A stretch of 19,845 bases of DNA from a virus (taxonomy: Duplodnaviria > Heunggongvirae > Uroviricota > Caudoviricetes), in the IMG/VR virus record IMGVR_UViG_3300031998_000043. One strand, given 5' to 3'. Shown here piece after piece: positions 206 to 19,345 of this stretch (the stretch's first letter is position 1; each line of letters opens with the position of its first letter). The position numbers and the translations under genes are program-made. The notes beneath the pieces are model-generated. The model was not told where the DNA came from. It ran no database searches and worked only from the letters and a program-made list of their open reading frames with translations.

Positions 206-3200
206 TTAGAATTGTACTCTGTCTAGATCCTTTCCGACATAATATTGTTCGTGAATGATTCCTACCGAGCCATATTTATCATTTACTATGCGCTTATAGT
301 TAGTCGAATTTTGTGAGTAATTACTTACTTCCTTCCTTCTTGCATATAACCATGTACTTTCCAATGGGCTAAGATATTCAAAGTCTCTACAACCTGCAGT
401 TGGTATCAAAGCTGAAAGGGCTATAGTATCTCTATCTCCTTGACCTGCCCAGATGTTAATTTGAATCTTCATCGGTGTTTGTAATTCTAGATAGGTTCGT
501 AGTTGCTCTTGAAGAGAAGAGTCACTTACCCATGCACCGTCTTTACCAGTTGCAGCATACTGCTCAAAAATGGCTAGATTCGATATATTCACACTAAAAC
601 CGCCATTTATTCTTGCCATATAAGTATTCTTATAACGATTATCAACGAAACCAGTTACATTTTTTATTCTGCTTGGGTCATCAAAAACTGGAACAGACAT
701 AAATGTTCGACTGGAATTATTCGTACTTACAACTTGTACACCATTTATATGAATAGTCATATATGCTAAAACACCAACAAGAGAACCGAAATCTGGATTT
801 TGTGCTGCACAATCTGTTTGCCATCCTATTCTTCCATTTGCGGATTCTCGAGAAGATGTAGGCATATTAATGTTTAAAGTCAGAACAAGTGGCAAAATAC
901 CTATACACGGTTTCATCTCGCCATTCTGTAGGAACATTGGCCAGTATTTTGTTCCTACAGAACCACTACTGGCGGATAGCTCTCCAGATCCGTTGATGTA
1001 GATATGTTTAGTACTACTACCAAGACTGCCAGTGCGTGCTTTGAATTCGCCATTCTGCATGTAGATAAATTTTGAATTACTACCTGCAGAACCAGAAACA
1101 CCAGAAGATCCCTGAATAATCTGTTTCCATGTAGCAGACATAAGACTGCTATTTGGTGTAGTAACACTAAAGTCATTTTCACCAAAGTTAAGCATGGTAA
1201 TGTTATCATTGTATACGGTTACTTTTTCAGAATTTATGCATATACAACCTACAGTGCCGCCGCCATTTCTGGTAAGAAGATAGATGTCATCATTAGCGAC
1301 ATATATTTCAGAAGTAGAACCAGAGCCTACAAATTGCATACCAAAACGGTTTGCTTTCATACCGGCATAAGCCTCTATATGAGGATGTGTAGCATCCTCA
1401 GAAGATTTATGATGCCACATGAATGTCATGTACTCACTATCTTTGGCTTTACTACCCGGAGCTATTGTAAAGGTATTAGTGGGAATACCGCCTGTACTTC
1501 CGTAGCTTACTTTACTATCAATAGAGATAAGAGGCGTATAGTAATTATTGGTATTATAAGATTCTATTGTATTGAGATTAATTTCATTGTAGCGTCCGGT
1601 ACCAGTTTGTCTGAAAAGGCCGAGTCGAGAATTGTCTATGAATCCTGTAGCACTAAGAGTACCACTAGTTAAACTAGTCCTAAACTGGCTAGCATTAATA
1701 AATGTCTGAGAACCCTGGTTGGAATCTATGATCGTAGAATAAGCATTAATAGTCGTTGTAGAAACAGATCCGAAGTAAGTTCTATTAAGAGTAATAGAAG
1801 ACTCAGAGTGAGGGTTCGGAGAACCAACAGTAGCATATGTATACAAATCTATTGTGCCAAAAAGGGTATCCGAAGCTTTAGACTTAAGATGCATTACAGC
1901 AGTCCGATCATTATCTGTGACCTTAGAGATGATTGAATATTCTTGATTAGAATTAGGTCTATTAGCAGATATGTCAATCCCTGCTTCTCTATAGGCTGTA
2001 GTACCAACATGGGTAGTCCTTATAGTAACATTACCAAATCCGGAATTTGTTGTAATGGTAGCAAAATTATCACTGACAGATGAAAGTATCTTATGATCAT
2101 TTCTAATATCTTGAACACTAAGATCTGCAGAAGAAGAACTTGCAATAGACTGGATATAAAATCCATCGTATCTAATCTGTTCAAGTGAATACTTATTGCT
2201 ACTAGAACTAACATCATTTATATACGAAACTACATACCTGCTATCATCATCAGTACTAATAATAGAACGTGCTTCTCTATTATCTTTAGCGTACATAGCA
2301 GCACGTGTAAAGTTTCCATTGTCTTCACTTACCAAGTCAAATGAAGACGTATCTCCATTTTTCACTTTTATTATGCCAACATTATCGCCAGAAATAATAG
2401 AAAATTCAGACTGTATAGCAGACTCTATAGTTCCAGAAACACCACTATTTTCAGTAGTCTTTAATTCAATATATCCATTAGGGCCATTAGAAATCTTGGA
2501 GTATGCCTGTGTTGCACTCACAGAAGACTTAATGGATCCACTAGTGGAAGTACTACCATTTCTAATCTCAGTATCAACAGATGTTCCATTGATGTTAGTT
2601 AATGCAGAAGTTTGGCCAAAAACCATTGTCTCCTTAACACCGTTGTTAAGGCTAGTTTCAAGATTGATATATTTGCCATCTCCATTAGACAATTTTGTAG
2701 AAGACGAACTATCACTCACAGAAGATTCAATAGTGCCGCCATTATTACTACTATTACTTTTTGCAAGTTCAGTTGTTGCTATTGCTCCATTAAGCGTAGT
2801 AATAGAAGAGGTTTCTTCAAATCTCATTATCTCGCTGGTAGCATTAGTAGTCACACCGGCAGTATAAGATTTAGTAGGCGCGTTGTCTATCTTTAGGGTT
2901 TCAAATGCAGAATTAGTTCCTTTAGCTTCGATAGAAGAAGCTCCAGATTCGGACTTTAATTCAATACTATTATTATCTGTTTTCTTAATATTGATCTTAG
3001 CTTCAGAAGAGTTAACTTCTTCTAGAATCTGTCTATCATAATTCTTTTTATAGTCATGCGTCGGAGTGATTTCTGTGAAGAGAGCAGAGTCATTCCCAGT
3101 AACTTCAATCTTAGAAGAGGAGAAGTTTCCAGATGTTGCATCAGCAGAATCCTCAATGAATGGAAGATTATAGAAGTAAATAGTACCGGAATTAGTGCTA

Positions 3201-4465
3201 GCAAAGTATCCCATTCCAAGATAATAAATCTTGGAACTATCAGGAACATGTGCTGGAATGATACTGTCTCTTCTCAGCTTAGAAACTTCAGTTACATTGC
3301 TTATATCATGCACAGTAACCAGAGTAAGTGTGGAACCTACTATAATAGAGAAAGATACATTCTCGAAAAGCTCATCGCTGAATTTCCTTGTAGCTTGATA
3401 ATCAGTATCATCAATAACAACAAAGGGATTTCCACTTTCATCATCCGCACCAATAGCCTTTCTATTCACACAGATACCGCCATCTTCATAAATGGTTGCA
3501 ATCGTCTTTCTGTTTATATAAGAATTACATCCAATAGCAAAGAATTCTGCAGCATCAGAACTAGAAATACTAAAATCGTAAATACTGTATCCATCATTTC
3601 CAGTAGAGATCTTTCTAACAGAAATACTACCGCCATTTTGTCTATAAGCATAGTAAGCAGTCTTCTTACTGATAGATGGACTGTTATTAACGTTATAACA
3701 ATATCTCTGTACAGCTTTAGAAATAGCATTCTGGAAAGTAAATCCACTAAATCCGCTAGCAATACTAGAGGTTACATCTCTGTCAAAAGACTTTCCAAGA
3801 TTAAGAAGCTTAAGATCATTTCCAGAAATAACCAAGAATACACCTTCTTCAGAGATCTGAAGAAGACTATCTGCACTAGGAAGCGTTACATTCGTATTCT
3901 CGATAAAATCAGGCCTGTCCGAAGACTGTTCAGCATCCAGATTTATTGTAAACAGCTTCAAGGACTTATCATTATATCTGACAAGGAATCCAACGCCTTC
4001 AGCCGTTCTACACATAAAGACACGGTTAGCAGTCGTTGTAGTGGAGAATCCGATTCTCCAACCAATCTCGCCTTCCTTAGTAAACACGTTACTAAAATTA
4101 GTATAGACAACATCACCATTATTTTTAAGGGCAGCAACATATTGTCTATCAAGAGACGTTACATCTACAGCGCCAGTAATACCTGCTTCCTTAAGCTCTC
4201 TCAAAGACGTTCTAGACTTAAGAAGATCACCGACTTCACTTTCAATCGTATAATCTTCACCTGAACCAATCTTTACATAACGATGCGTACCATTCTTGAT
4301 AATGTGTGTATACACATTACCAACTTTATCAATAAAGATTTCACCAACTCTAGGAAGGTCAGGATCGGCAATTCTAGGAACAGGTGCATGAACAGGAGCG
4401 TCATATGGAGTTCCAACATCCTGAGTCCATGTCCATCTCAAAGGCTTAATAATAAAGCGACTCAT
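206..4465 (-). CDS. Large virion protein, probable tail fibre / receptor-binding protein (1419 aa)
   Basis: Long ORF rich in S/T/N/G with a beta-strand-like pattern. Internal repeats (GTIESSVSDSSSSTKLSNGDGKYINLET vs GSIKSSVSATQAYSKISNGPNGYIELKT) and three C-terminal GSxGS..K.IY..NGE-type repeats. Start moved from 4531 to ATG 4465 because RBS AAGGAG precedes it and a terminator hairpin covers 4511-4538. Confidence 0.6.
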   Translation of the reverse strand: MSRFIIKPLRWTWTQDVGTPYDAPVHAPVPRIADPDLPRVGEIFIDKVGNVYTHIIKNGTHRYVKIGSGEDYTIESEVGDLLKSRTSLRELKEAGITGAVDVTSLDRQYVAALKNNGDVVYTNFSNVFTKEGEIGWRIGFSTTTTANRVFMCRTAEGVGFLVRYNDKSLKLFTINLDAEQSSDRPDFIENTNVTLPSADSLLQISEEGVFLVISGNDLKLLNLGKSFDRDVTSSIASGFSGFTFQNAISKAVQRYCYNVNNSPSISKKTAYYAYRQNGGSISVRKISTGNDGYSIYDFSISSSDAAEFFAIGCNSYINRKTIATIYEDGGICVNRKAIGADDESGNPFVVIDDTDYQATRKFSDELFENVSFSIIVGSTLTLVTVHDISNVTEVSKLRRDSIIPAHVPDSSKIYYLGMGYFASTNSGTIYFYNLPFIEDSADATSGNFSSSKIEVTGNDSALFTEITPTHDYKKNYDRQILEEVNSSEAKINIKKTDNNSIELKSESGASSIEAKGTNSAFETLKIDNAPTKSYTAGVTTNATSEIMRFEETSSITTLNGAIATTELAKSNSSNNGGTIESSVSDSSSSTKLSNGDGKYINLETSLNNGVKETMVFGQTSALTNINGTSVDTEIRNGSTSTSGSIKSSVSATQAYSKISNGPNGYIELKTTENSGVSGTIESAIQSEFSIISGDNVGIIKVKNGDTSSFDLVSEDNGNFTRAAMYAKDNREARSIISTDDDSRYVVSYINDVSSSSNKYSLEQIRYDGFYIQSIASSSSADLSVQDIRNDHKILSSVSDNFATITTNSGFGNVTIRTTHVGTTAYREAGIDISANRPNSNQEYSIISKVTDNDRTAVMHLKSKASDTLFGTIDLYTYATVGSPNPHSESSITLNRTYFGSVSTTTINAYSTIIDSNQGSQTFINASQFRTSLTSGTLSATGFIDNSRLGLFRQTGTGRYNEINLNTIESYNTNNYYTPLISIDSKVSYGSTGGIPTNTFTIAPGSKAKDSEYMTFMWHHKSSEDATHPHIEAYAGMKANRFGMQFVGSGSTSEIYVANDDIYLLTRNGGGTVGCICINSEKVTVYNDNITMLNFGENDFSVTTPNSSLMSATWKQIIQGSSGVSGSAGSNSKFIYMQNGEFKARTGSLGSSTKHIYINGSGELSASSGSVGTKYWPMFLQNGEMKPCIGILPLVLTLNINMPTSSRESANGRIGWQTDCAAQNPDFGSLVGVLAYMTIHINGVQVVSTNNSSRTFMSVPVFDDPSRIKNVTGFVDNRYKNTYMARINGGFSVNISNLAIFEQYAATGKDGAWVSDSSLQEQLRTYLELQTPMKIQINIWAGQGDRDTIALSALIPTAGCRDFEYLSPLESTWLYARRKEVSNYSQNSTNYKRIVNDKYGSVGIIHEQYYVGKDLDRVQF

Positions 4466-4505
4466 AAAGTCTCCTTGTCTGTTTATCAATGATAAAGTTT
4501 TTGAT

Positions 4506-4538
4506 AAAAATTCTAGTATGGTATAGACCATACTAGAA
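4506..4538 (-). terminator. Intrinsic terminator after the 212-aa gene
   Basis: Perfect 12-bp stem TTCTAGTATGGT-atag-ACCATACTAGAA flanked by A-runs, giving a T-tract on the minus strand. Confidence 0.8.
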
Positions 4539-5276: not shown

Positions 5277-6140
5277 ATGAACGCAGGTTTGTGTTTATCT
5301 GTTTCTGGTGGTGGAATTTTGGGTGTTGGCCCTGCTCACTATCTTGCTCGTCTTGAAGGAGACCTTGGGTGTCCGCTTGGTAATAGACTTATTGCTCAGG
5401 CTGGAACGTCTACTGGCTCTATCCTTGCGGCTGGTATGGCTGAAGGAATTAAGGCTATCGATATGGAAGAACTATATCGTAAGAAAGGTTCTACTATCTT
5501 TACAAAGTATCCTTGGTATAAGAGAGCCTTGCCCACTTGCCCTACTTATGATAATACCAACCTTAAGAAAATCCTTAAGGAAAAATTCAAGGGTAAAGTC
5601 AATGAGTGGAAAGAGCCTACATTCATTACATCTACATACATGAATGGAAAATCCGTAGAGAAGATTTGGGATGAAAAAGATGTTGTAGAAAAGTGGTTTG
5701 CAATTCTTACATCTTGCGCAGCTCCAACTTACTTTGATGTTATTGTTGACTCTATGTCTAGAAGCTTCTGTGATGGTGGTATGTGGGCCAACTCTTGTCC
5801 TCAGATCCTGATGGCAGGTATGTATCGTAGAGGTAATAGGAATATTCGCATTCTTAACCTTGAGACTGGTATGGATACTCCCAATACTGAAAGTGGAAAT
5901 AAGACTTTAGCTGGTTGGGCTACCTATATCTTTAAGAAATGGGTTGCCAGAGCTTCTAAGGCTAATGCTTATATTTGCTCTTCCGTACTGGGCGATGAGA
6001 ATTTCTTTAATGTTATGCCGGAATCTCATAAGACACATGAGATGGATGACATGAAGGAAATTGATATTGTCACTGATATTTGGGATAAGCAATACGATAA
6101 GGATCGTGAAAAACTTCTGAAATTCGTTAATCCGAGGTAG
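5277..6140 (+). CDS. Patatin-like phospholipase (287 aa)
   Basis: Gly-rich SGGGILG loop, nucleophile elbow GTSTG and DGG motif (FCDGGMWAN). RBS GGAGG. Confidence 0.92.
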   Translation: MNAGLCLSVSGGGILGVGPAHYLARLEGDLGCPLGNRLIAQAGTSTGSILAAGMAEGIKAIDMEELYRKKGSTIFTKYPWYKRALPTCPTYDNTNLKKILKEKFKGKVNEWKEPTFITSTYMNGKSVEKIWDEKDVVEKWFAILTSCAAPTYFDVIVDSMSRSFCDGGMWANSCPQILMAGMYRRGNRNIRILNLETGMDTPNTESGNKTLAGWATYIFKKWVARASKANAYICSSVLGDENFFNVMPESHKTHEMDDMKEIDIVTDIWDKQYDKDREKLLKFVNPR

Positions 6141-6612: not shown

Positions 6613-8583
6613 ATGAACAAAGAATCTATGTCGAAGTATGATGAGCTAATGGCTGCCGCCGAAAGCATCAAGAAAGAATTGCTTGATTGTGATAAGCAGG
6701 TTGACCAGTTTGCTCAACTGATTGCTCCGTGGTATTGCGCCCCGGAAATCATTACTAAGCCTCTGGTCATTAACCTTGTTGGTATGACTGGAATTGGTAA
6801 GACTCAGATGTTCCGTCTGTTCTGTGATAGACTTAAGCTGAACAGCCTTGCCGAAACACTCACTTGCGCTAACAATACCTCTATCAATCCTTCTACTGTT
6901 GCCTTCCGCATGAAAGAAGAACAAGGTCTTGAAAAAGGTATCATCTTCATTGATGAATTCCAGAATTTCTCCTGTAAGGGAATGATGGGTGTTAGAACGA
7001 ATAATCCTAGCACTCAAGAATTCTGGAACCTGCTCTCCGATGGTAAAGTCAAGATCAATATGTCCAAGGAAGAACTTGAACGATTGATGTACAGAGCTCA
7101 GGGCGAAATGCAGACAGAAGAAGAAGAACTGTCTAACGGAAAGAAGAGACAGTCATTCCCGACGTTCTTTGGAAGTACTGCGTACCGTCTTTACATTCTT
7201 TGTAAGAAGAAAGTTCCTCTTGAGAAAATCAAGGTCATGCACGGTAAGGAAGCTTTCAAGTTTGTTAGTGAGCTTTACGAACACTATGATAATAAGCCGA
7301 TTTACGCAGACTTTTCTAAGTTCCTGTTCGTGACTGCCTGTAACCTTGACTGTGTTTTTGCAGATGCCACTGATGTAGCTTCTTGTGAGATCGATGCTGA
7401 TGAAGTGTATGAATCTACCAAGGATGTAAATATCTTTGATGTTAAGGAAGGATTATCCTACTTTTTCTTTCCTGAACAGGTTGCAAGACTTGGTAACAAC
7501 TTTATCATCTTCCATTCTCTTTCCAAAGACAGCTTCGAAAAGATCATTGATGGTTGTCTTAATGAAATCTCTGAAAATACTAAGGCAGCCATTGGTACTG
7601 AAATTACTTTCGACAAATCTGTCAAGGACATGGTCTACCGCAATGGCGTTTTCCCGACACAGGGTGCTAGACCTTTGATGTCTACTATTAATGGTACTAT
7701 TGCTTCAGCTATTCCTCTGATTGTATTCAAACAGAAGGAAGCTGACAAGAAGATTACCGTTAAGTATAATGATGAAAAAATGGAACTAGAAGCTAATGGC
7801 GTAAGCGTAAGCTGCATTGGCCCTTATGACGAAAGTGCTAGACGCATTAAGACTAAGGTTAATGAACGCCGTTGTACTTCGGTTCATGAATCTGGTCATG
7901 CTATAGTCTATGCCGAATCCTTTGGAGCTATTCCTAAGAAGATGGTCAGCATTGTAGCAGACTCTAGAGTTGCTGCCGGATTCATTTCTACTCACATAAT
8001 TCGTCATACTGCCATTACAATGAAGGCTTTCATTTGTGTAGCCCTTGCTGGAATGGTTGCTGAAGAGATTGTATTCGGTAAGGACTTCCGCACGGTTGGA
8101 TGCTCTTCTGACTTGGCCAAGGCTACTGCAATGGCTGCCGCCTATGTTAGAAAGTTTGCATTCACCGATAAGATAAAGGCTGTGGTCGGAACCAAGGAAA
8201 ATGAGTACAATAAGCTCTCTGAAACTTCCGAAGTGATCAACGATATCATCAAGGATTGTATCAAGACTACTAAGGAAATTATCACTAAGAATATTGAAAT
8301 TCTTAAGGAAATCTCTGAAGTAATGTTTGAAAAGACTAGATGTACTCCGGAAGAGTTCAAGGCTATTGCCGATAAGCATGGAAAGAAGTATGTCATTGTC
8401 AGTCCTTCCAAGAAGATTACTCCTAACTTTGAAGAACGCTATAAGATGTTCGATGAGTCCAAGGTTAAGTCTATCGAAGAAGTATCTAATGCTGAAGAAT
8501 GTGTATCCTTCTTTGAAGGTGCTTACAGAGAATCCGATTCCGGTATGACTCCGGCAGTTGACGATCTTTTCTTGGACTTCTAA
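6613..8583 (+). CDS. AAA+ ATPase (ClpA/B D2-like) fused to an M41 (FtsH-type) zinc metallopeptidase domain, no transmembrane segment (656 aa)
   Basis: Walker A GMTGIGKT and Walker B IIFIDE. ClpB-D2-like FFFPEQVARLG..IIFHSL and GARPL. M41 motifs HESGH, AGMVAEEIVFG and GCSSDL. RBS AAGGA. Confidence 0.85.
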   Translation: MNKESMSKYDELMAAAESIKKELLDCDKQVDQFAQLIAPWYCAPEIITKPLVINLVGMTGIGKTQMFRLFCDRLKLNSLAETLTCANNTSINPSTVAFRMKEEQGLEKGIIFIDEFQNFSCKGMMGVRTNNPSTQEFWNLLSDGKVKINMSKEELERLMYRAQGEMQTEEEELSNGKKRQSFPTFFGSTAYRLYILCKKKVPLEKIKVMHGKEAFKFVSELYEHYDNKPIYADFSKFLFVTACNLDCVFADATDVASCEIDADEVYESTKDVNIFDVKEGLSYFFFPEQVARLGNNFIIFHSLSKDSFEKIIDGCLNEISENTKAAIGTEITFDKSVKDMVYRNGVFPTQGARPLMSTINGTIASAIPLIVFKQKEADKKITVKYNDEKMELEANGVSVSCIGPYDESARRIKTKVNERRCTSVHESGHAIVYAESFGAIPKKMVSIVADSRVAAGFISTHIIRHTAITMKAFICVALAGMVAEEIVFGKDFRTVGCSSDLAKATAMAAAYVRKFAFTDKIKAVVGTKENEYNKLSETSEVINDIIKDCIKTTKEIITKNIEILKEISEVMFEKTRCTPEEFKAIADKHGKKYVIVSPSKKITPNFEERYKMFDESKVKSIEEVSNAEECVSFFEGAYRESDSGMTPAVDDLFLDF

Positions 8584-11453: not shown

Positions 11454-11495
11454 CATTGGTGGAACTTATGATTGAAGTTTTCAAAAGGGCTATTT

Positions 11496-14060
11496 ATGAA
11501 TGATACAAACTTAGAAACATCGCTAAAGAAGGCGAATGATAAGATTGAACGAAACTTGTACGGGTTCAATCTGTCCGACTTCTCTGCGAACCTAGATTCT
11601 ATTAATGAACTTGCCCAAAAGTCTCTTAAGACGATCAACAGTCTTAAGGTTACTGGAGACCAGCCCGATCTCATTGAGTTCATTGATAGAGAATTCTACA
11701 ACAGCAAGGCTGGACGTATAGGTAAGGGTTGGGGCATTAATGTTCCCAACAATGGATCTGTTAGAGCTAAGAATTACGAAAATACTCTATTATCCGATCT
11801 TGAATCTGGTAAGATTGATCTTGCCGGAGAAGATGCTAATTCTGTATCTAGACAAGCTAGATATAGATCGATTGATAGCGTGTGTTCCTTGATTCCTCAG
11901 TTGATGAGAATCCTGCATATCTATCGTGACTCTATCATGTCTCCGAATGCTTTTTCTGAACTTTCAGAAACTGATGGTCTCACCTTTGACGTTAAGCAGA
12001 CTGGTGAACATGAAGCAACCAACTTCCAAGTTCTTGATACCTTGTTAAATCTAAATAAGGAATATAAGGTTTCTGACGAAGTTGCTCCTAAGGCTTGTTC
12101 TGACCTTTTGAAATATGGTGACGGTTACGTTTGTGTTCTTGATTATGAGAAAGAAGTAAACAGACTTCTGCACATGGCAGATGATACTCCTCATGGACTG
12201 GCTCATGAAGCCTTCCTTGATAGAAGTAGTGAGGGAATGCTTGCTGCCAATGAAGCAAAGTCCTTGAACAACATTGTTAAGTCTTTGATTGATGAAGAGT
12301 ATGATGCATTTAAGTCTTTGAACCCTTCTTCTAAAGAAAAGAAACCTGAGTTTAAGGATCTATCTGCTCTCGAATGGTCTAATGAGATTGATAAGTTCCT
12401 TAATGTAGAATATACTACAAGTCTAATGAGTCTCTTCCCTGAAGAGAAGATGCTTCTTGATGACCTCATTGATTCGGGTTCTCTCAAGAGTGGCAAGGAT
12501 ATTATGCTTGCTGCCAGAGAAGCATTTAATTCTGAAGAAAACACCGGTCTTGTAATTGATGGATCTATTGTAAAGGTTCTGGATCCTAAGAAGGTCGTGA
12601 TTGTTGAGATCGCAGGTAAGGAACTTGGATATTATTTCCTGTCTGCTGAATTTGATGATGCTCGAATTGATGCTCTTGACTACAATCCTCAAGGATGTCC
12701 GGCATGTGATCTGACTTATACTAGTGATCGTATGTATTCCTTTATCACCCATATGGGTAATAGCCCGGTGAATAAGGAAACTAGAGCTAGCATTATTGCT
12801 GATCTTTGTCTTAAGAGACTTTCCAAGAAGATTGACAGAAAGTTTATCGCAAAGAACAAAGAGTTCAAGGACTTCATTTTTTCTATCCTTAGAGCAAAAA
12901 AGAGACTGAATAAGGTTACAGTGACCTTTATTCCGGCATCCAATCTTGTTCACTTCAAGAGAGGAAACGGAACCTACGGTGAATCTGTTCTTGACAGTGT
13001 TCTTTACTTTGCCAAACTCTACGTACTTTCTATGCTCTCCGCCCTGATGCAGCAAATCATCATGGGTAAGGATAAACAGATCTTCTACGTTGACACTGGT
13101 CTTGATGAAGATTCTGAAGGAGCGATCCAGAAGTTCATTATGGACTTCAGATCTAAGGAAGTGACCGTAGATGACTTCTCAGATGTCACTAATATTATGA
13201 ACCGTGTTACGAAGAGTAACTCTATGTTCATTCCTATGGTGGACGGAAAGAAGGCTGTAGAATTTGACAATTATGCTGGACAGCAAGCTGAATTTAATAA
13301 TGACTTCTTGCAAGACTTGCTTAAGTCTATTATTAGCGGTACAGGCATTCCTACTGCATGGCTTGATAGTGGTATGAGCGATATTGAATTCGCCACGCAG
13401 CTTGTACAGCAGAATGGTAACGTTCTTAGAACTGTGACAATGTACCAGAGAGTCATGAACAATGGTATTACCAGATTGTTCCAGCTTCTCTATAAACATC
13501 AGAAGATTGGTAAGGATACAGAGAATCAAGATAATATTCCTGAATTCTTCATTCATTATCCTGAACCTGTGACCCTTGATAGCAAGGTTGCTGAAGAGTC
13601 TATTTCTAAAGCTCAGTCTATTGCTGATTTCATTATCAATACCCTTATTGGTGAGAATCCGAATGATCGTGATAATCTTGCCAAGGAAGTTCTTAAGAGA
13701 GAACTTACTAAGAAATACTCTGCCGGTATTGACTGGGAAGAAGCAGAAGAACTGCTTAAGAAAGCCAGAGAAGAGACTCAGGAAACTGCTCTCCGTGATG
13801 AAGCCATTGACAAGAAGGCTGAAGAGACTCACGATGAAGAAGCAGAAAAGCATCCTGAAGAGGCCAAGAAACAGGAAGAAGAAAAGCAGGAAGAGGAAGG
13901 TGGAAACCAAGCCAATCCTGAAAACCCTGAAGAGGAAGAAGAAACTTCAGAAGAAAATGAAAAGTCTTCTGCTGCAGAGAAACCTAAGAAGGGAGAAGAA
14001 AATGAGGAAGAGGAAGAATCTGAAGGTGGTTCACCTGAAGAGGATTTCTTTAACTCCTAA
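11496..14060 (+). CDS. Portal protein, T4 gp20-like, in an enlarged jumbo-phage form (854 aa) with an acidic C-terminal tail
   Basis: KDKQIFYVDTGLDED...FIPMVDGKKAVEFDNYAGQ...LQDLLKSIISGTGIPTAWL parallels the T4 gp20 core as I recall it (RRVWYVDTG...WLQRRDGKAVTEVDTLPG...LYMALRVP). The N-terminal IPQLMRILHIYRDSIMSP segment is typical of large-phage portals. Start moved from TTG 11472 to ATG 11496. Confidence 0.85.
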   Translation: MNDTNLETSLKKANDKIERNLYGFNLSDFSANLDSINELAQKSLKTINSLKVTGDQPDLIEFIDREFYNSKAGRIGKGWGINVPNNGSVRAKNYENTLLSDLESGKIDLAGEDANSVSRQARYRSIDSVCSLIPQLMRILHIYRDSIMSPNAFSELSETDGLTFDVKQTGEHEATNFQVLDTLLNLNKEYKVSDEVAPKACSDLLKYGDGYVCVLDYEKEVNRLLHMADDTPHGLAHEAFLDRSSEGMLAANEAKSLNNIVKSLIDEEYDAFKSLNPSSKEKKPEFKDLSALEWSNEIDKFLNVEYTTSLMSLFPEEKMLLDDLIDSGSLKSGKDIMLAAREAFNSEENTGLVIDGSIVKVLDPKKVVIVEIAGKELGYYFLSAEFDDARIDALDYNPQGCPACDLTYTSDRMYSFITHMGNSPVNKETRASIIADLCLKRLSKKIDRKFIAKNKEFKDFIFSILRAKKRLNKVTVTFIPASNLVHFKRGNGTYGESVLDSVLYFAKLYVLSMLSALMQQIIMGKDKQIFYVDTGLDEDSEGAIQKFIMDFRSKEVTVDDFSDVTNIMNRVTKSNSMFIPMVDGKKAVEFDNYAGQQAEFNNDFLQDLLKSIISGTGIPTAWLDSGMSDIEFATQLVQQNGNVLRTVTMYQRVMNNGITRLFQLLYKHQKIGKDTENQDNIPEFFIHYPEPVTLDSKVAEESISKAQSIADFIINTLIGENPNDRDNLAKEVLKRELTKKYSAGIDWEEAEELLKKAREETQETALRDEAIDKKAEETHDEEAEKHPEEAKKQEEEKQEEEGGNQANPENPEEEEETSEENEKSSAAEKPKKGEENEEEEESEGGSPEEDFFNS

Positions 14061-14067
14061 AACCAAG

Positions 14068-14097
14068 TGTGGAAAGCTTCGGCTTTCCACATTTTTT
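14068..14097 (+). terminator. Intrinsic terminator of the portal gene
   Basis: TGTGGAAAGC-TTCG-GCTTTCCACA followed by TTTTTT. Confidence 0.92.
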
Positions 14098-14100
14098 AAG

Positions 14101-14133
14101 AAAAAAAGACGGGAACACTCCTGTACCCGTCTT
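14101..14133 (-). terminator. Intrinsic terminator closing ncRNA 1
   Basis: AAGACGGG...CCCGTCTT stem with 7 A on the plus side, giving a U-tract on the minus strand. It sits back-to-back with the portal terminator, and no credible minus-strand gene ends here. Confidence 0.8.
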
Positions 14134-14640
14134 ATAACCCCGTTACCGGAGTTTTGCTAATCCCTATGGGTAGGATCCCTATTGTCTGGAGCTATTCTAC
14201 GATGTGGGTATCGCACATTAGTAGTGAACAGGGCAAGTTAATGCCTTGTTATGCCCGTGCTTTGTCGTACCGGCATCCGAGGACATTTGAGTGTCCAGTC
14301 TCCAGATCCACGGAGAGGATCCATTTTTTGCGGTGGCGTGTCTCATCCACTGGCCCCACGTCGCGGGATTCTTCTAGACAGTACCATTTCAGCTTGCGCA
14401 TCGGCTTACTTAGATACAAACCAGCCTCTTCGCCTCGTCCATAGTTTGCAAGACCACGGCGGCTCTTCTGGTTCCGTTGAGTGCTCACCACTGAGGATAG
14501 CTTCTCCTCAAAGGCTTCTCGCTCCATTTTACGGCTTTGTCCCAACGGCGACTCAGCACAACCCCTACGCTACGAGTATGTATACGTAGAGGACACCTCC
14601 TAAGATATTTGATCTTAACATCGAGGAGATTAGGTCAAAA
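14101..14640 (-). ncRNA. Putative large structured ncRNA 1 (~540 nt), family unassigned
   Basis: Locally GC-enriched (a sampled 60-nt line is 53% GC in an AT-rich genome). Bounded by TATATAA and a terminator. The 5' end TTTTG-ac-CTAATCTC (14640-14626) pairs with GGGATTAG-CAAAA (14164-14152). Many hairpins (TGAGGA/TCCTCA, GGACA/TGTCC, ATGTG/CACAT, AACTCCG-GTAA-CGGGGTT with a GNRA loop). Shares motifs with ncRNA 2. Confidence 0.75.
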
Positions 14641-14642
14641 AG

Positions 14643-14649
14643 TTATATA
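14643..14649 (-). promoter_or_regulatory. TATATAA promoter element for ncRNA 1
   Basis: GATTGTATATAACT on the minus strand, immediately before the 5' strand of the closing helix. Confidence 0.55.
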
Positions 14650-14701
14650 CAATCATCATATCACTTTTTACATAAACTCAATAATGAACTTGAGAGGAAA
14701 T

Positions 14702-15160
14702 ATGAAGAAAGTGGATGAAATTGTAGCACTAGAGGATCGTTGCAACGAGCTATTTTCTATGCTCCCGGCAGATGAAGTTGCTAGCGCTAATGGTGTTATT
14801 GATAGACTTCTTTATATGGACTATGGAAAGATGGTTAAGCATTTTAAGAGCCGTATAGAAGTTACCGATGATAAGAAGGCTCTGCAGAATCTTAAAGACG
14901 ATATCCAAGATGTGCTTACTAATATGCAGGATATAGTCAAGGGTAAGACTAATAAGGCTACTGCAATTAGAAGTATCATTACAGCATTAGTAAGTGCAGG
15001 TCTATTTGCTATTCCGTTTGTTGGTATTGCTTCTATGACTGCCTTTATTGTAAAACGCACTAAAGATATGGATGAAATTAGAAAGAAGCTGAGTGCCCAG
15101 ATTCCGGGAATGCAGCAAATTCTAACAACTGTTAAACAAAAAATCGAGAGGATCAAATGA
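14702..15160 (+). CDS. Hypothetical helical protein with one long hydrophobic segment (152 aa)
   Basis: Start moved from 14537 to ATG 14702 (RBS GAGAGG). Hydrophobic stretch IITALVSAGLFAIPFVGIASMTAFIV lies between coiled-coil-like helices. Confidence 0.75.
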   Translation: MKKVDEIVALEDRCNELFSMLPADEVASANGVIDRLLYMDYGKMVKHFKSRIEVTDDKKALQNLKDDIQDVLTNMQDIVKGKTNKATAIRSIITALVSAGLFAIPFVGIASMTAFIVKRTKDMDEIRKKLSAQIPGMQQILTTVKQKIERIK

Positions 15161-15702
15161 TTAAAGATTACTATGCCGGAAAAGATTTCTATAGTGGAAT
15201 TTTTAATACGGATGAAGAACCGCCCAAAGGAAAGGAAACAGAGCTTCAATCTGAAGATCCTGAAGGTGTTGTGAAAGAAAATGATGGTACTACAAAGAAA
15301 GCAGTGCCGAAGCTCGATGTTCGTTATAGAATTGAGAATTACGAAAAGATGATCAAGGAAGCTACTTCCGAAAGTACTCTTAAGAAGATCATTTATAGTC
15401 TTGAAAAGGATATCCAGAGTCTTGAAAAGACTTCTGACGAGATGGGTACCGATCCTAGCGATGATGACAATGATAACTGGAAGAAGAATGAGGAAGAACA
15501 AGCTAAGAGCTTCTGGCCTAAGACTTCTGATTCTAATAAAATTAAGACTCTTATGCCTAAGACCGATAAGGAAGGGCATACTATTGAGAAAGATGATAGC
15601 GAGACTAAGGACGAGAAGTCTTTTAAGACGTTTGATTATCTTCCCGAATACCAAGCCTTGCTCGTAAAGGCCAAAGAAAAGCTCAAAAAGATGACTTCGT
15701 AA
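15157..15702 (+). CDS. Hypothetical highly charged (D/E/K-rich) protein (181 aa)
   Basis: ATGA overlap with the upstream gene; followed by a terminator. Confidence 0.8.
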   Translation: MIKDYYAGKDFYSGIFNTDEEPPKGKETELQSEDPEGVVKENDGTTKKAVPKLDVRYRIENYEKMIKEATSESTLKKIIYSLEKDIQSLEKTSDEMGTDPSDDDNDNWKKNEEEQAKSFWPKTSDSNKIKTLMPKTDKEGHTIEKDDSETKDEKSFKTFDYLPEYQALLVKAKEKLKKMTS

Positions 15703-15709
15703 ATCAACA

Positions 15710-15738
15710 TTCCGTACCTTCGGGTACGGAAAATTTTT
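15710..15738 (+). terminator. Intrinsic terminator
   Basis: TTCCGTACC-TTCG-GGTACGGAA followed by AATTTTT. Confidence 0.85.
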
Positions 15739-15942
15739 AAAACTTTCTATTGTGGAGAATTTCACACATGAATCTTCTAATATTAAAGCCGTTATTACGC
15801 TAATACGAAAATTCAGTTTGAATTATTCAGACGAGTTTAGGTATTAGCATATACTTTCTCGTTTGATTCCACAATCGTTCTAACTTTACTTTGGAAACAG
15901 GCTCCACAAGCCGCATAGTAAAAATTGAAATGGAGACAAATG

Positions 15943-18216
15943 ATGATCACAGAGATCGAAAAAAGAGATGGTAGAGTTGTACCGTTTACTGAACAGAAGG
16001 TGTTCAATGCGGTATATAAGTCATTCGCAGAAGTTGCAGCTAAGAATGGCACTACGGTAGATGAGAACAACGTCAAGATCGTTGTTGACGAAGTCGTGAA
16101 GGATATCCAAGATCTTCAAGCAGACCGTCTTCAAATTGACGAAATGCAGTCTATTGTAATTTGTGCTATTAAGGACAAGGGCTTCACGGAAGAATTCGAA
16201 GCATATCGTAACTTCCGTAACCGCCGTAACAGAGCAAGAAATCGTAAGATGCCTCTGTACTCCAAGTTGGCTGATATTACTTTCAGCGACCTCGAAGACT
16301 CTAACATCAAGCGTGAAAATGGTAACATTGATGGAAATTCCGCAATGGGTAAAATGCTTCGGTATGGTTCTGAAGCTGCCAAGGAATTCTTCCTTGATCG
16401 TGTTATTAGCGAAAAGTATTCCAATGCTCATAGAGAAGGGTTTATCCATATTCATGATATGGACTTCTATGGCATTACGACGACATGTACCCAGATTGAC
16501 CTTGTTCAGATGCTCGAAACAGGCTTCAACACTGGTCATGGGTTTGTCCGTCCTCCTAATTCTATTCGTACCGCTGCTGCTCAGACTGCTATTCTTATTC
16601 AGTCTAACCAGAATGACCAGCATGGCGGTCAGTCTATCCCTAACTTTGACTTGGGATTGGCTAAGTATGTAAAGCTTTCTTTCAACAAGATCCTTCGTCA
16701 TGAATTCGAAGATGCCTTGTTTTTGGCTGATGTCAAGGAAGAAGATGTTAAGGCTATGGAGAAGGACTTGTTTGCTGACAAGTATAAATATTCCATGCAG
16801 GATTGCGAAGCTTTCTGTAATGATATTGCCAGTTGTGGTATTGAAAAGTCTGAAGGCGAAAAGCTGTTTAAGCTCTCATTGAAGCGTATCTATGGAAAGA
16901 CTTATCAGGCTATGGAAGCATTGTTGTTCAACCTGAATACGATGCATAGTAGAGCAGGTGCTCAGGTTCCGTTCTCTTCTATTAACTACGGTACGGAAAC
17001 TTCTGAAGAAGCTCGTCTGGTTATCAGGTGTATGCTTGAAGTGACTGACAAGGGTCTTGGTCATGGTGAAACACCGATCTTCCCCATTCAGATTTTCCGT
17101 GTAATGGAAGGTGTGAACTACAATCCGGGCGATCCTAACTATGACTTGTTCAAGCTTGCCATGAAGGTATCTGCTCACAGGTTCTTCCCGAACTGGGAAT
17201 TCCAAGATTCTCCGTTCAATATGCAATACTATGTGCCGGGTAAGCCTGAAACACTTGTTTCCACGATGGGTTGCCGTACCAGAGTTGTTGCAGATGTTAA
17301 TGCTGAAGTTCCGCAGGTGTGGCGTAGAGGTAATCTCTCTTTCACCACTATTAACCTCCCTCGTCTTGCTATCGTTAACAGAGGCAACTGGGCTGGATTC
17401 TATGCGGATCTTGACAAGTATCTGAATCTCTGTAAAGATCAGTTGCTTGAACGCTATGCTCTTCAGTGTAAGCAGAAAGTAAAGAACTTCAAGTTCCTGA
17501 TGGGTCAGCATGTATGGCTTGATTCTGAGAAGCTTGGAATGAATGACACTCTTGAGTCTGTCCTGAAACATGGATCTTTGTCTATTGGTTTCATCGGTCT
17601 GGCTGAAGCTCTGATTCTCATGACTGGTCATCATCATGGCGAGTCTGAAGAAGCTCAGAAAGAAGGTCTTGCCATTGTTAAGCACATGAGAGACTTCTGT
17701 GATAAGTGGACTGAAGAACTGAAGCTGAACTTTACCCTCTTAGCTACTCCGGCTGAAGGATTGTCTGGACGCTTTACTAGGATTGATAAGGCTAAGTTTG
17801 GCGATATTCCGGGAATTACTGATAAGGACTTCTATACAAATTCCTGTCATATTCCTGTAGACTATAAGTGCTCTGCTTTCCATAAGATTCAGGTAGAAGC
17901 TCCGTATCACGCTCTTTGCAATGCAGGTCATATACTCTATGTAAAGATGGATGGTGATGCTACTCAAAATCTCGAAGCCTATGAGAAGATTGTCCGTTGT
18001 ATGCATGATAATCATGTAGGCTACGGAGCAGTCAATATTGATGTAGACTATTGTACTAAGTGCCATAAGAGTGGTATCTTCAATGAAGATAAATGTCCGT
18101 TCTGTGGAAGTACTGAGATTGATCGTATCAGACGTATTACTGGTTATCTTGTTGGCTCTTTGGCTAATTGGAATAATGGTAAGAAGGCTGAATACAAGAT
18201 CAGAGGAAACGTGTAA
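15943..18216 (+). CDS. nrdD: Anaerobic (class III) ribonucleoside-triphosphate reductase, large subunit, with an N-terminal ATP cone
   Basis: ATP-cone start IEKRDGRVVPF, then FIHIHDMDFY, TMGCRT, ATPAEG, Zn-site CTKC...CPFC and glycyl-radical loop RRITGYL. RBS GGAGA favours ATG 15943 (alternative 15940). Confidence 0.97.
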   Translation: MITEIEKRDGRVVPFTEQKVFNAVYKSFAEVAAKNGTTVDENNVKIVVDEVVKDIQDLQADRLQIDEMQSIVICAIKDKGFTEEFEAYRNFRNRRNRARNRKMPLYSKLADITFSDLEDSNIKRENGNIDGNSAMGKMLRYGSEAAKEFFLDRVISEKYSNAHREGFIHIHDMDFYGITTTCTQIDLVQMLETGFNTGHGFVRPPNSIRTAAAQTAILIQSNQNDQHGGQSIPNFDLGLAKYVKLSFNKILRHEFEDALFLADVKEEDVKAMEKDLFADKYKYSMQDCEAFCNDIASCGIEKSEGEKLFKLSLKRIYGKTYQAMEALLFNLNTMHSRAGAQVPFSSINYGTETSEEARLVIRCMLEVTDKGLGHGETPIFPIQIFRVMEGVNYNPGDPNYDLFKLAMKVSAHRFFPNWEFQDSPFNMQYYVPGKPETLVSTMGCRTRVVADVNAEVPQVWRRGNLSFTTINLPRLAIVNRGNWAGFYADLDKYLNLCKDQLLERYALQCKQKVKNFKFLMGQHVWLDSEKLGMNDTLESVLKHGSLSIGFIGLAEALILMTGHHHGESEEAQKEGLAIVKHMRDFCDKWTEELKLNFTLLATPAEGLSGRFTRIDKAKFGDIPGITDKDFYTNSCHIPVDYKCSAFHKIQVEAPYHALCNAGHILYVKMDGDATQNLEAYEKIVRCMHDNHVGYGAVNIDVDYCTKCHKSGIFNEDKCPFCGSTEIDRIRRITGYLVGSLANWNNGKKAEYKIRGNV

Positions 18217-18257
18217 AAAAAGAACAACGACCGGGTGATGAGTCCGGTCGTTGTTCT
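18215..18257. terminator. Terminator hairpin shared by nrdD (+) and ncRNA 2 (-)
   Basis: 14-bp perfect stem AGAACAACGACCGG (18221-18234) / CCGGTCGTTGTTCT (18244-18257). The better U-tract (A6 on plus) is on the minus strand. Confidence 0.85.
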
Positions 18258-18774
18258 GTTTCTCCTCAGCAACCAATGGTGGCTGTTTAGGAGTTAGAAG
18301 CATTGTGCACTTGCTTCTAGCCTTCTACAGAGACCTATAGCTTTCCTGCCCAAGACAAGACTTACAGGTATTGCGATGGTCTTAACCCTTCCTCCAGTTC
18401 ATATAGCAGGGCGCCCCCTGTGGCACTATGAAGAACCAGATTCCAAGCTATCCTACAATGGCCATTGTAGTGACATGGAGAGTATTTAGTTAATCCTAAC
18501 TACGGATATTTAACTCTTCTCCGTCAGATGCTGTCGGCATCCTTATCCATCCCCTTCCGGCATTGGAAGATGGACTACAGCGATTCGCCACTTCGGGAGA
18601 GCTACTCCTTTAGGCTGTCGTGGAACGCTGCCAATTTCACCGTACTCTTTCAGACGAACACCTGATCCCCAAGAATGCGAACCTGGGTCAGATGCATAGT
18701 ACGGCTATCAATCTACTACATCAGTCTTTCGTGATTAGATCGATTGAGCATAGTCTTTCAACATACGCTATAAG
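18215..18774 (-). ncRNA. Putative large structured ncRNA 2 (~555 nt), paralogue of ncRNA 1, family unassigned
   Basis: No credible ORF and partly GC-enriched. Bounded by TATATAAT and a terminator. 5' CTTATAGC (18774-18767) pairs with GCTATAGG (18341-18334). Nested helices include CCGTACT/AGTACGG, GCATCTGA/TCAGGTGT, CCATC/GATGG, GGATGC/GCATCT, TAGAAGCA/TGCTTCTA and CTCCT..CAGC/GCTG-AGGAG. Shares motifs with ncRNA 1. Confidence 0.75.
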
Positions 18775-18775
18775 A

Positions 18776-18782
18776 TTATATA
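18776..18782 (-). promoter_or_regulatory. TATATAA(T) promoter element for ncRNA 2
   Basis: ATAGTATATAATC on the minus strand, just downstream of the upstream gene's terminator and overlapped by a small inverted repeat TACTATT-aac-AATAGTA (18781-18797). Confidence 0.55.
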
Positions 18783-18806
18783 CTATTAACAATAGTAAAA
18801 ATACAC

Positions 18807-18836
18807 AAAAAAGAACAGGATCCGAAGATCCTGTTC
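18807..18836 (-). terminator. Intrinsic terminator of the 158-aa gene
   Basis: GAACAGGATC / GATCCTGTTC stem with a UUCG loop on the minus strand and a T6 tract. Confidence 0.9.
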
Positions 18837-18868
18837 CTTTTGACCACTTCGCCTTTTTGTGGAAAATC

Positions 18869-19345
18869 CTAGAAACGCTTACCTTCAAGATGAGCAAACT
18901 TCTTAAAGAACTTTGCGTTGGCATCCTTATGCTGTTCAATGACAGCATAGTCACGAAGCTGATTGAACAACTTCTTGGGCTGACGAAGCATCCACTTCTT
19001 GAGATTGTTGATGACATCTTCGGTCTTACCAATACGCTTGATGTTGAACTTGGCATAGTTCTGTTCCTGCTGTTCTTCAGTCTTCTTAGTCCAGACTTCC
19101 ACATAGTAATAGTCGAACTTCTTCTTCGTATCAAAATCCTCGTCAGTGTTATGGACGAAATTGAATTCGACGGTGGAATGCAAGAATGGATGAGTAGCCT
19201 GAAGCTTCATGGCTTCCTCGACTGCCTTCATGTCAACCATAGGCAGAGCCTTCTTCTTAAAAGGCTTCTTGGCAGTCTTCTTTTCAGCTTCAGGACGCTT
19301 ATAAGTGTTAAGTTTCTTGGTCGGTTCCTTAATCTGTTCGGGCAT
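18869..19345 (-). CDS. Hypothetical basic, Lys-rich protein (158 aa)
   Basis: RBS AGGAG, TATATAA upstream (19380-19386) and a terminator downstream. Confidence 0.85.
   Translation of the reverse strand: MPEQIKEPTKKLNTYKRPEAEKKTAKKPFKKKALPMVDMKAVEEAMKLQATHPFLHSTVEFNFVHNTDEDFDTKKKFDYYYVEVWTKKTEEQQEQNYAKFNIKRIGKTEDVINNLKKWMLRQPKKLFNQLRDYAVIEQHKDANAKFFKKFAHLEGKRF

Follow-up and report, generated by a model that had tools for sequence, protein, structure and literature searches.

Structured RNAs longer than 500 nucleotides (nt) are rare in bacteria and phages, and those that have been described (ROOL, GOLLD, OLE, and raiA) combine striking architectures with functions that are still unknown. OLE is the RNA of a membrane-associated ribonucleoprotein (RNP) in extremophilic Firmicutes. 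RNA-only homo-oligomers, held together by kissing loops and A-minor contacts, include a ROOL octamer, a GOLLD 14-mer, and an OLE dimer. A large ornate phage RNA without an assigned function is therefore a kind of object that is already known. Here, we analyzed a 19,845-nt stretch of DNA (the window) from an uncultured phage of the cow rumen (IMG/VR record IMGVR_UViG_3300031998_000043), which carries two such units, RNA1 and RNA2, on its minus strand (Table 1).

Both units are stand-alone structured noncoding RNA (ncRNA) genes without a conserved open reading frame (ORF). Each has its own promoter and terminator, base pairing that is kept in orthologues, and detectable RNA. Taken as a whole, the data are best explained by two undescribed accessory ncRNA genes whose products probably act in trans and possibly self-associate.

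The first-pass annotation of this DNA had called the RNAs either ROOL-like or undescribed, and a search of Rfam 15 (4,227 families) favored the second option and spoke against the first. No family matched at gathering score on the window or at an E value of ≤10 on positions 14000-19000 and on each RNA alone; sub-threshold matches were to terminator hairpins only (SdsR, psRNA14, ctRNA, and microRNA models). The Rfam covariance models without a match include ROOL (RF03087), GOLLD, OLE, HEARO, raiA, group I and II introns, RNase P, transfer-messenger RNA (tmRNA), 6S RNA, and packaging RNA (pRNA). ARAGORN found no tRNA or tmRNA in the window, and a literature search found no description of RNA1 or RNA2. 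The two RNAs belong to no described family and are undescribed rather than ROOL, GOLLD, or OLE.

In several respects, RNA1 and RNA2 are still like ROOL, which is also about 0.5 to 0.6 kb long, multihelical, phage encoded, first seen in the cow rumen, and without a known protein partner. They differ in having no covariance-model match, in lying away from tRNA genes, and in being carried by a jumbo phage that encodes RNA polymerases of its own. GOLLD (RF01998) and OLE are likewise large ornate RNAs, and their kissing-loop palindromes AGCU and GAUC are the same as those in hairpin loops of RNA1 and RNA2. In contrast to GOLLD and OLE, RNA1 and RNA2 have no Rfam match and the role of their loops is putative; they are also smaller than GOLLD.

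Structure and coding potential of RNA1 and RNA2

Both units fold more stably than dinucleotide-shuffled sequences. The minimum free energy (MFE) was -187.5 kcal/mol for RNA1 (z = -3.29) and -191.3 kcal/mol for RNA2 (z = -3.84), and in both units, the MFE of the minus strand was 15 to 25 kcal/mol lower than that of the plus strand. RNA1 is the GC-richest 540-nt segment of the 19.8 kb (50.2% versus 39.7%), and the GC content of RNA2 is 47.1%, compared to about 40% for the window.

Using the flanking virion structural protein and NrdD, we retrieved three related contigs, G001 (136 kb), G002 (235 kb; 91% complete), and G003 (242 kb; 94% complete). Loci L007 and L008 (from G001 and G002, respectively) hold an RNA1 orthologue at the same position, with the same promoter box and a terminator; blastn aligns just 228 nt of it with RNA1, at 69% identity. 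Locus L009 (from G003) holds an RNA2 orthologue with its own promoter box (GTATATTA), of which blastn aligns just 47 nt. This orthologue (L009:12783-13322) contains four RAUAGC words, with about 0.3 expected. Flanking proteins are 83 to 91% identical between the window phage and its relatives. The RNAs have thus diverged much further than the proteins beside them, yet their helices are kept. Every helix that was matched by hand can form in both orthologues, with many pairs changed on both sides, and the RNAalifold pair tables agree. Sixteen G-U pairs lie within the matched helices.

Among the helices of RNA1, all pairs of hairpin P1 form in the window and in L007; 7/7 pairs of P1a are kept, with 5/7 changed on both sides, and the loop palindrome GAUC is kept in both orthologues. 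L007 preserves 8/8 pairs of P2, including 4 with both sides altered, and a C>U strain variant at position 14589 retains its pair as G-U. The A module, with the loop GAAGCUA (14498-14504) in its hairpin hpA, shows a C-G to U-A change in helix P3 and an hpA stem that changes from AGGA/UCCU to CAGA/UCUG in L007. Strain variation in the RNA1-specific middle domain takes the pair 14455/14403 from G-C through G-U to A-U, and the G-U intermediate pairs on the minus strand only. The A module of RNA2 has the hpA loop UAGCU (18600-18604); its counterpart in L009 consists of GCGACG/CGUCGU, CCC/GGG, and UUUC/GGAA with the loop UAGCUA, so that P3 differs between the two by A-U/G-C to G-C/A-U. The 6-bp hairpin B of RNA2 has one C-G to U-A change in L009.

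These changes bear on the reading that the units are decaying or unannotated protein genes or functionless transcribed spacers. RNA1 does have an ORF of 92 to 98 amino acids (aa) on the RNA strand, and ORFs of 96 to 112 aa lie on the opposite strand. However, the former, the sole long ORF of RNA1, is reduced to 14 codons in L007 and has a 1-nt insertion in one strain variant; the ORFs are not conserved in L007, and no ORF of either unit has a Pfam match. Pairing is instead conserved by compensatory changes, and a GC-rich stable fold persists even though the sequence changes more rapidly than the flanking proteins. We regard a coding or functionless origin as hardly credible. The initial call of structured ncRNA was accordingly borne out for both segments, by fold z-scores, compensatory changes, RNA contigs, and the lack of a conserved ORF: what the orthologues conserve is base pairing. 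A TATATAA-type box and a minus-strand terminator were also present at both units as proposed; of the 5'/3' closing helix that had been described, we found no robust version for RNA2.

The promoter boxes give a hint at the timing of expression. The early consensus of phage AR9, AAATATATATTAT-6N-G(+1), is read by the virion polymerase (PMC5312081), and the GTATATAA boxes of RNA1 and RNA2 appear, by their sequence, to resemble these early promoters. In RNA2, a G follows exactly 6 nt after TATATAAT; RNA1 would start 6 to 7 nt downstream of its box, at about 14635-14636. Boxes of the form GTATAT[AT]A fall largely in the noncoding DNA of three genomes, where they are strongly enriched, with 28/40 in G002 (11.3% noncoding) and 21/36 in G003 (8.6% noncoding). 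Two RNA-polymerase beta-like genes are present in each of G002 and G003.

Relation between RNA1 and RNA2

Beyond calling them ncRNA genes, the first-pass annotation had placed RNA1 and RNA2 in a single large ncRNA class, as diverged paralogues that share a core (motifs A, B, and C) but differ in their peripheral domains. The three motifs lie on the minus strand where they had been placed, and the peripheral differences exist as described (a long stretch between A and B in RNA1 and a long extension after C in RNA2). Paralogy itself failed all sequence-level and covariance-model tests. The best local alignment of RNA1 with RNA2 scored 20, compared to 20.0 ± 2.2 for shuffles. Chained alignments between RNA1-type and RNA2-type sequences gave z-scores of -1.3 to 2.5, whereas true orthologue pairs gave 5 to 15. 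Lineage-conserved 5- to 7-mers common to both lineages numbered 31 (27.9 ± 4.2 in permuted controls). A covariance model built on the A domain of RNA1 scored its own members at 105 to 107 bits and RNA2 at 3.1 bits, and it missed the L009 RNA even in a search space of 371 nt. MAFFT produced no alignment of RNA1-type with RNA2-type segments, and for this reason no four-sequence covariance model was built.

The helix joining A to C, for which a compensatory swap between the two RNAs had been claimed, is 5 to 6 bp long. It was equalled or beaten by 16 to 25% of other windows in the same RNAs, which is within chance, and it is not kept in register in the orthologues. The order of the C element and a CAUUAA hairpin in L007 also differs from that in RNA1.

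One feature speaks for common ancestry or for a common functional element. All four RNAs contain a nested module in which P3 (6 to 8 bp) encloses Pa (3 bp; NCC/GGN), a 4-nt spacer, and a 4-bp hairpin. The hairpin stem is different in each RNA (AGGA, CAGA, GGAG, and UUUC), and the loop always has AGCU. Among 3,000 shuffles of each RNA, 0 to 2 matched a descriptor of this module, and 2.48 Mb of DNA, both related and unrelated, yielded 5 other matches. The descriptor was written after the sequences had been seen, which lowers its true significance. One tight-descriptor match (G002:124764) lies within a coding ORF and was rejected. A loose helix descriptor was uninformative (94 matches versus about 55 in shuffles). 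Downstream of the module, the composite GGAU..CGACA..RAUAGC occurs in all four RNAs and in 4 other places in the 2.48 Mb; its B and C elements are short words.

Points in favor of paralogy are the rare module with its covarying stems, the composite, the same promoter type, length, strand, and neighborhood, and a complementary distribution, with one type per near-complete sister genome. Against it stand the chained alignments and k-mer sharing at control level, the failure of MAFFT and of the A-domain model, the chance-level A-C helix, the differing element order, and the fact that every descriptor was designed with the sequences in view. On balance, we lean against paralogy while regarding it as a serious candidate; for a shared functional module in RNA1 and RNA2, we see the chances as evenly poised. 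Beyond the nested module, homology between the two RNAs cannot be shown.

Expression and genomic distribution

RNA from both units was found in public RNA data from bovine rumen or gut (small-share runs lacking an alignment are left out of this habitat statement). Seventeen RNA runs cover 5 to 37% of the 4.9-kb stretch that spans the units, and four were aligned to it. Three of these (X4, X8, and X12) come from three independent metatranscriptome studies. RNA1 contigs of 446 to 498 nt came from three studies (14125-14573, 14184-14625, and 14127-14624), and RNA2 contigs reached 476 nt (18283-18758, 18283-18715 plus 21 diverged nt, and 18283-18463). The contigs end about 10 to 25 nt inside the predicted start and terminator of RNA1, with ends at 14125-14127 inside the terminator, and the picture is similar at the 5' end of RNA2. 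These ends are a weak hint in support of the predicted ones; the contigs carry no strand, and uncovered flanks prove nothing. In X4, X8, and X12, the flanking phage genes were matched only by short foreign nrdD fragments, which hints against DNA carryover. When RNA1 was queried alone, 12 studies contributed 20 RNA runs that contained 33 to 74% of its words, some of these runs being only 5 to 16 million letters in size. Recovery from such small runs indicates that RNA1 is a very abundant RNA in rumen communities.

The two RNAs are distributed unevenly among close relatives. G002 has the RNA1 type only, and G003 has the RNA2 type only; a promoter-to-terminator scan of both genomes revealed no additional unit with a length of about 0.5 kb. 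In G002, a 300-nt unit running from a TATATTA box to a terminator (G002:C1:100208-100507, in L118; longest ORF, 26 codons) is possibly a further small ncRNA of this sister phage. At the RNA2 site, G001 and G002 have two protein genes instead (one of about 255 aa and a small Cys-rich ORF; L010:6360-7320, minus strand), and the RNA1 site of G003 is occupied by a spacer of 130 nt. The 158-aa gene and nrdD flank a swap site. Since close relatives have either the RNA1 type or the RNA2 type, we consider the loci to be accessory cassettes that are gained and lost. No neighboring protein gene tracks either RNA, and the 153-, 181-, and 158-aa genes remain where an RNA is absent. An additional ORF of 164 aa, which has a TATATTA box of its own, lies beside the RNA2 orthologue in G003 (L009:12240-12740).

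Searches farther afield returned little. Against INPHARED phages, the only blastn matches were distant nrdD genes. Conserved-block patterns found the three known relatives only in IMG/VR and nothing in 185,579 GTDB species genomes, and five matches from a motif A pattern scan of IMG/VR were all rejected as chance matches in coding sequence. An NrdD-anchored metagenome scan yielded mostly 50%-identical bacterial genes, and the NrdD homologues in L129 (64%) and L130 (57%) have no RNA-sized gap at the locus. With nhmmer and the RNA1 model, no further copies were found in the whole of G000, G002, and G003 or in 17 other loci.

This distribution also bears on the idea of a DNA-level or priming element, in which the units would serve as a packaging site or as a replication origin that uses an RNA II-like primer, and the RNA would be a by-product. 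A length of about 550 nt and an own promoter recall ColE1 RNA II, the GATAGC words are repeated, and RNA1 lies beside a gene of the head/packaging category (phrog_3004). However, strong intrinsic terminators end both units, the G-U-compatible helix changes make sense only in RNA, and the units are dispensable in sister phages and accumulate as discrete RNAs. We consider this idea very unlikely. The pRNA of phage phi29 offers a related comparison, as it is phage encoded, early, and structured and oligomerizes by intermolecular loop-loop pairing, and RNA1 is back-to-back with a structural gene of the head/packaging category. Differences are the size of pRNA (about 120 to 174 nt), its confinement to phi29-like phages, and the lack of an Rfam match for RNA1 and RNA2. 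An essential packaging role of RNA1 is disfavored because a sister phage keeps the structural gene without RNA1.

The window corresponds to the minus strand of an IMG/VR contig of 48.8 kb, for which a completeness of 19% was estimated. The terminator of RNA2 also closes the convergent nrdD gene, whose closest counterparts are from Oscillospiraceae and other Clostridia. The 222-nt spacer upstream of nrdD (15703-15924), which has a bidirectional hairpin at 15710-15731 and no Rfam match, could be a leader or promoter region. Elsewhere, the window encodes a 1,441-aa ORF (206-4531) with neither a Pfam nor a PHROG match, a patatin-like phospholipase (5277-6140; PF01734, E = 9e-13), and an FtsH-like protein (6613-8583) that combines Peptidase_M41 (E = 3e-20) with a ClpB D2-small domain and matches AAA weakly.

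Table 1. Positions of RNA1, RNA2, their parts, and the neighboring genes in the window
Feature	Position	Strand	Description
Virion structural protein gene	11472-14060	plus	862 aa; phrog_3004, head/packaging category
RNA1	about 14636-14101	minus	Structured ncRNA, ~536 nt; box-to-terminator unit
RNA1 intrinsic terminator	14131-14101	minus	GACGGG...CCCGUC, then U7
RNA1 middle-domain helix	14403-14455	minus	RNA1 specific; strain variants mapped on fold
RNA1 A module	14474-14548	minus	P3 (8 bp) enclosing Pa (GCC/GGU) enclosing hairpin hpA; includes motif A
RNA1 hairpin P2	14562-14592	minus	8-bp base
RNA1 hairpin P1	14595-14630	minus	P1a (7 bp) and P1b (5 bp)
RNA1 promoter box	14643-14650	minus	GTATATAA; AR9 type, AT rich
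Gene without assigned role	14699-15160	plus	
Second gene without assigned role	15157-15702	plus	
nrdD	15925-18216	plus	PF13597, E = 1e-193
RNA2	about 18768-18215	minus	Structured ncRNA, ~554 nt; box-to-terminator unit
RNA2 terminator	18257-18215	minus	16-bp hairpin; U-run on minus strand
RNA2 hairpin B	18526-18542	minus	GGAUGC/GCAUCU, loop CGACA; equals motif B
RNA2 hairpin H4	18547-18573	minus	Window and L009 alignment fold: 11 pairs, 3 changed on both sides
RNA2 A module	18577-18631	minus	P3 (GCAGCG/CGCUGU) enclosing Pa (GCC/GGC) enclosing hpA
RNA2 promoter box	18776-18783	minus	GTATATAA; G at 18768 after 6-nt spacer
Terminator of 158-aa gene	18808-18841		RNA2 promoter box directly behind
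158-aa gene	18869-19345	minus	

Possible functions and significance

As a working model, RNA1 and RNA2 would each be encoded by a stand-alone gene of its own, giving rise to a stable and highly folded RNA of about 0.54 kb at high abundance. They would be made early in infection, accumulate far above the phage mRNAs, and act in trans as folded RNA. In its most likely form, this would be an ornate RNA whose conserved palindromic loops mediate self-association or the docking of partners. Cryo-electron microscopy (cryo-EM) of OLE, ROOL, and GOLLD revealed symmetric intermolecular kissing loops on GGCC, GAUC, or AGCU, and the quaternary structure of ROOL uses conserved kissing loops (PMC12286853). 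In our RNAs, conserved palindromic loops are AGCU in both, GAUC in P1 of RNA1, and UUAA in one hairpin of each. We favor a self-associating ornate RNA because the AGCU and GAUC loops match kissing-loop palindromes of OLE and GOLLD. A stronger version, in which the RNAs form a new class of self-assembling molecules, abundant early and building RNA-only dimers or cages via AGCU (plus GAUC and UUAA), with each phage needing at least one copy, strikes us as a long shot.

Several points weigh against the model of trans-acting, self-associating RNAs. By our own count, about 5/12 conserved loops are palindromic, no clear excess over the roughly 2.6 expected. Intramolecular pairing of the AGCU loop with the RAUAGC element is a possible alternative. 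Adjacency to tRNA genes, usual for ROOL and GOLLD, was not found: the nearest tRNAs in G000 are >30 kb away, and G002 and G003 have scattered single tRNAs only. Early expression of both RNAs is suggested by promoter likeness only. The strand and exact ends of both RNAs are predictions, the RNA data being strandless contigs. In run X3, a 7.9-kb contig with a depth of about 540 spans both RNAs and the intervening genes evenly; the strain behind it differs at 190 positions and by 17 gaps over 4.8 kb (about 96% identity), and X3 may represent DNA carryover or a highly active infection in a different gut sample. The covariation is statistically shallow because each RNA type is represented by two distinct sequences plus strain variants only. 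Several strain variants also disrupt pairs of the single-sequence MFE fold, which makes the model of the RNA1 middle domain unreliable.

The main alternative is a role as a protein sponge or RNP scaffold, in which the RNAs would be decoys for a host RNA-binding protein, nuclease, or defense sensor or a subunit of a phage RNP. Very high abundance would suit such a role, as would gain and loss between close relatives, which is typical of accessory and counterdefense loci. There is mild word enrichment as well (UAGC, z = 3.5; GGAU, z = 3.4; AUAGC, z = 4.5), with AUAGC being the most overrepresented 5-mer across the four RNAs and the L009 RNA having its four RAUAGC words. On the other hand, no protein gene covaries with either RNA, the enrichments (including a CsrA-like reading) are borderline after testing 256 to 1,024 words, and no known binding motif was recognized. 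We therefore rate this role as rather unlikely, although ahead of the priming, origin, and coding explanations, which are all unlikely.

With trans-acting structured RNAs as the preferred explanation, RNA1 and RNA2 add two large structured RNAs to the few that are known, from a jumbo phage that supplies its own RNA polymerases. Their abundance in a dozen studies brings them within direct reach of in vitro transcription, chemical probing, and cryo-EM, and the many public rumen strain variants could support a deep covariation analysis. The presence of one RNA or the other in near-identical phages is a natural experiment on their function.

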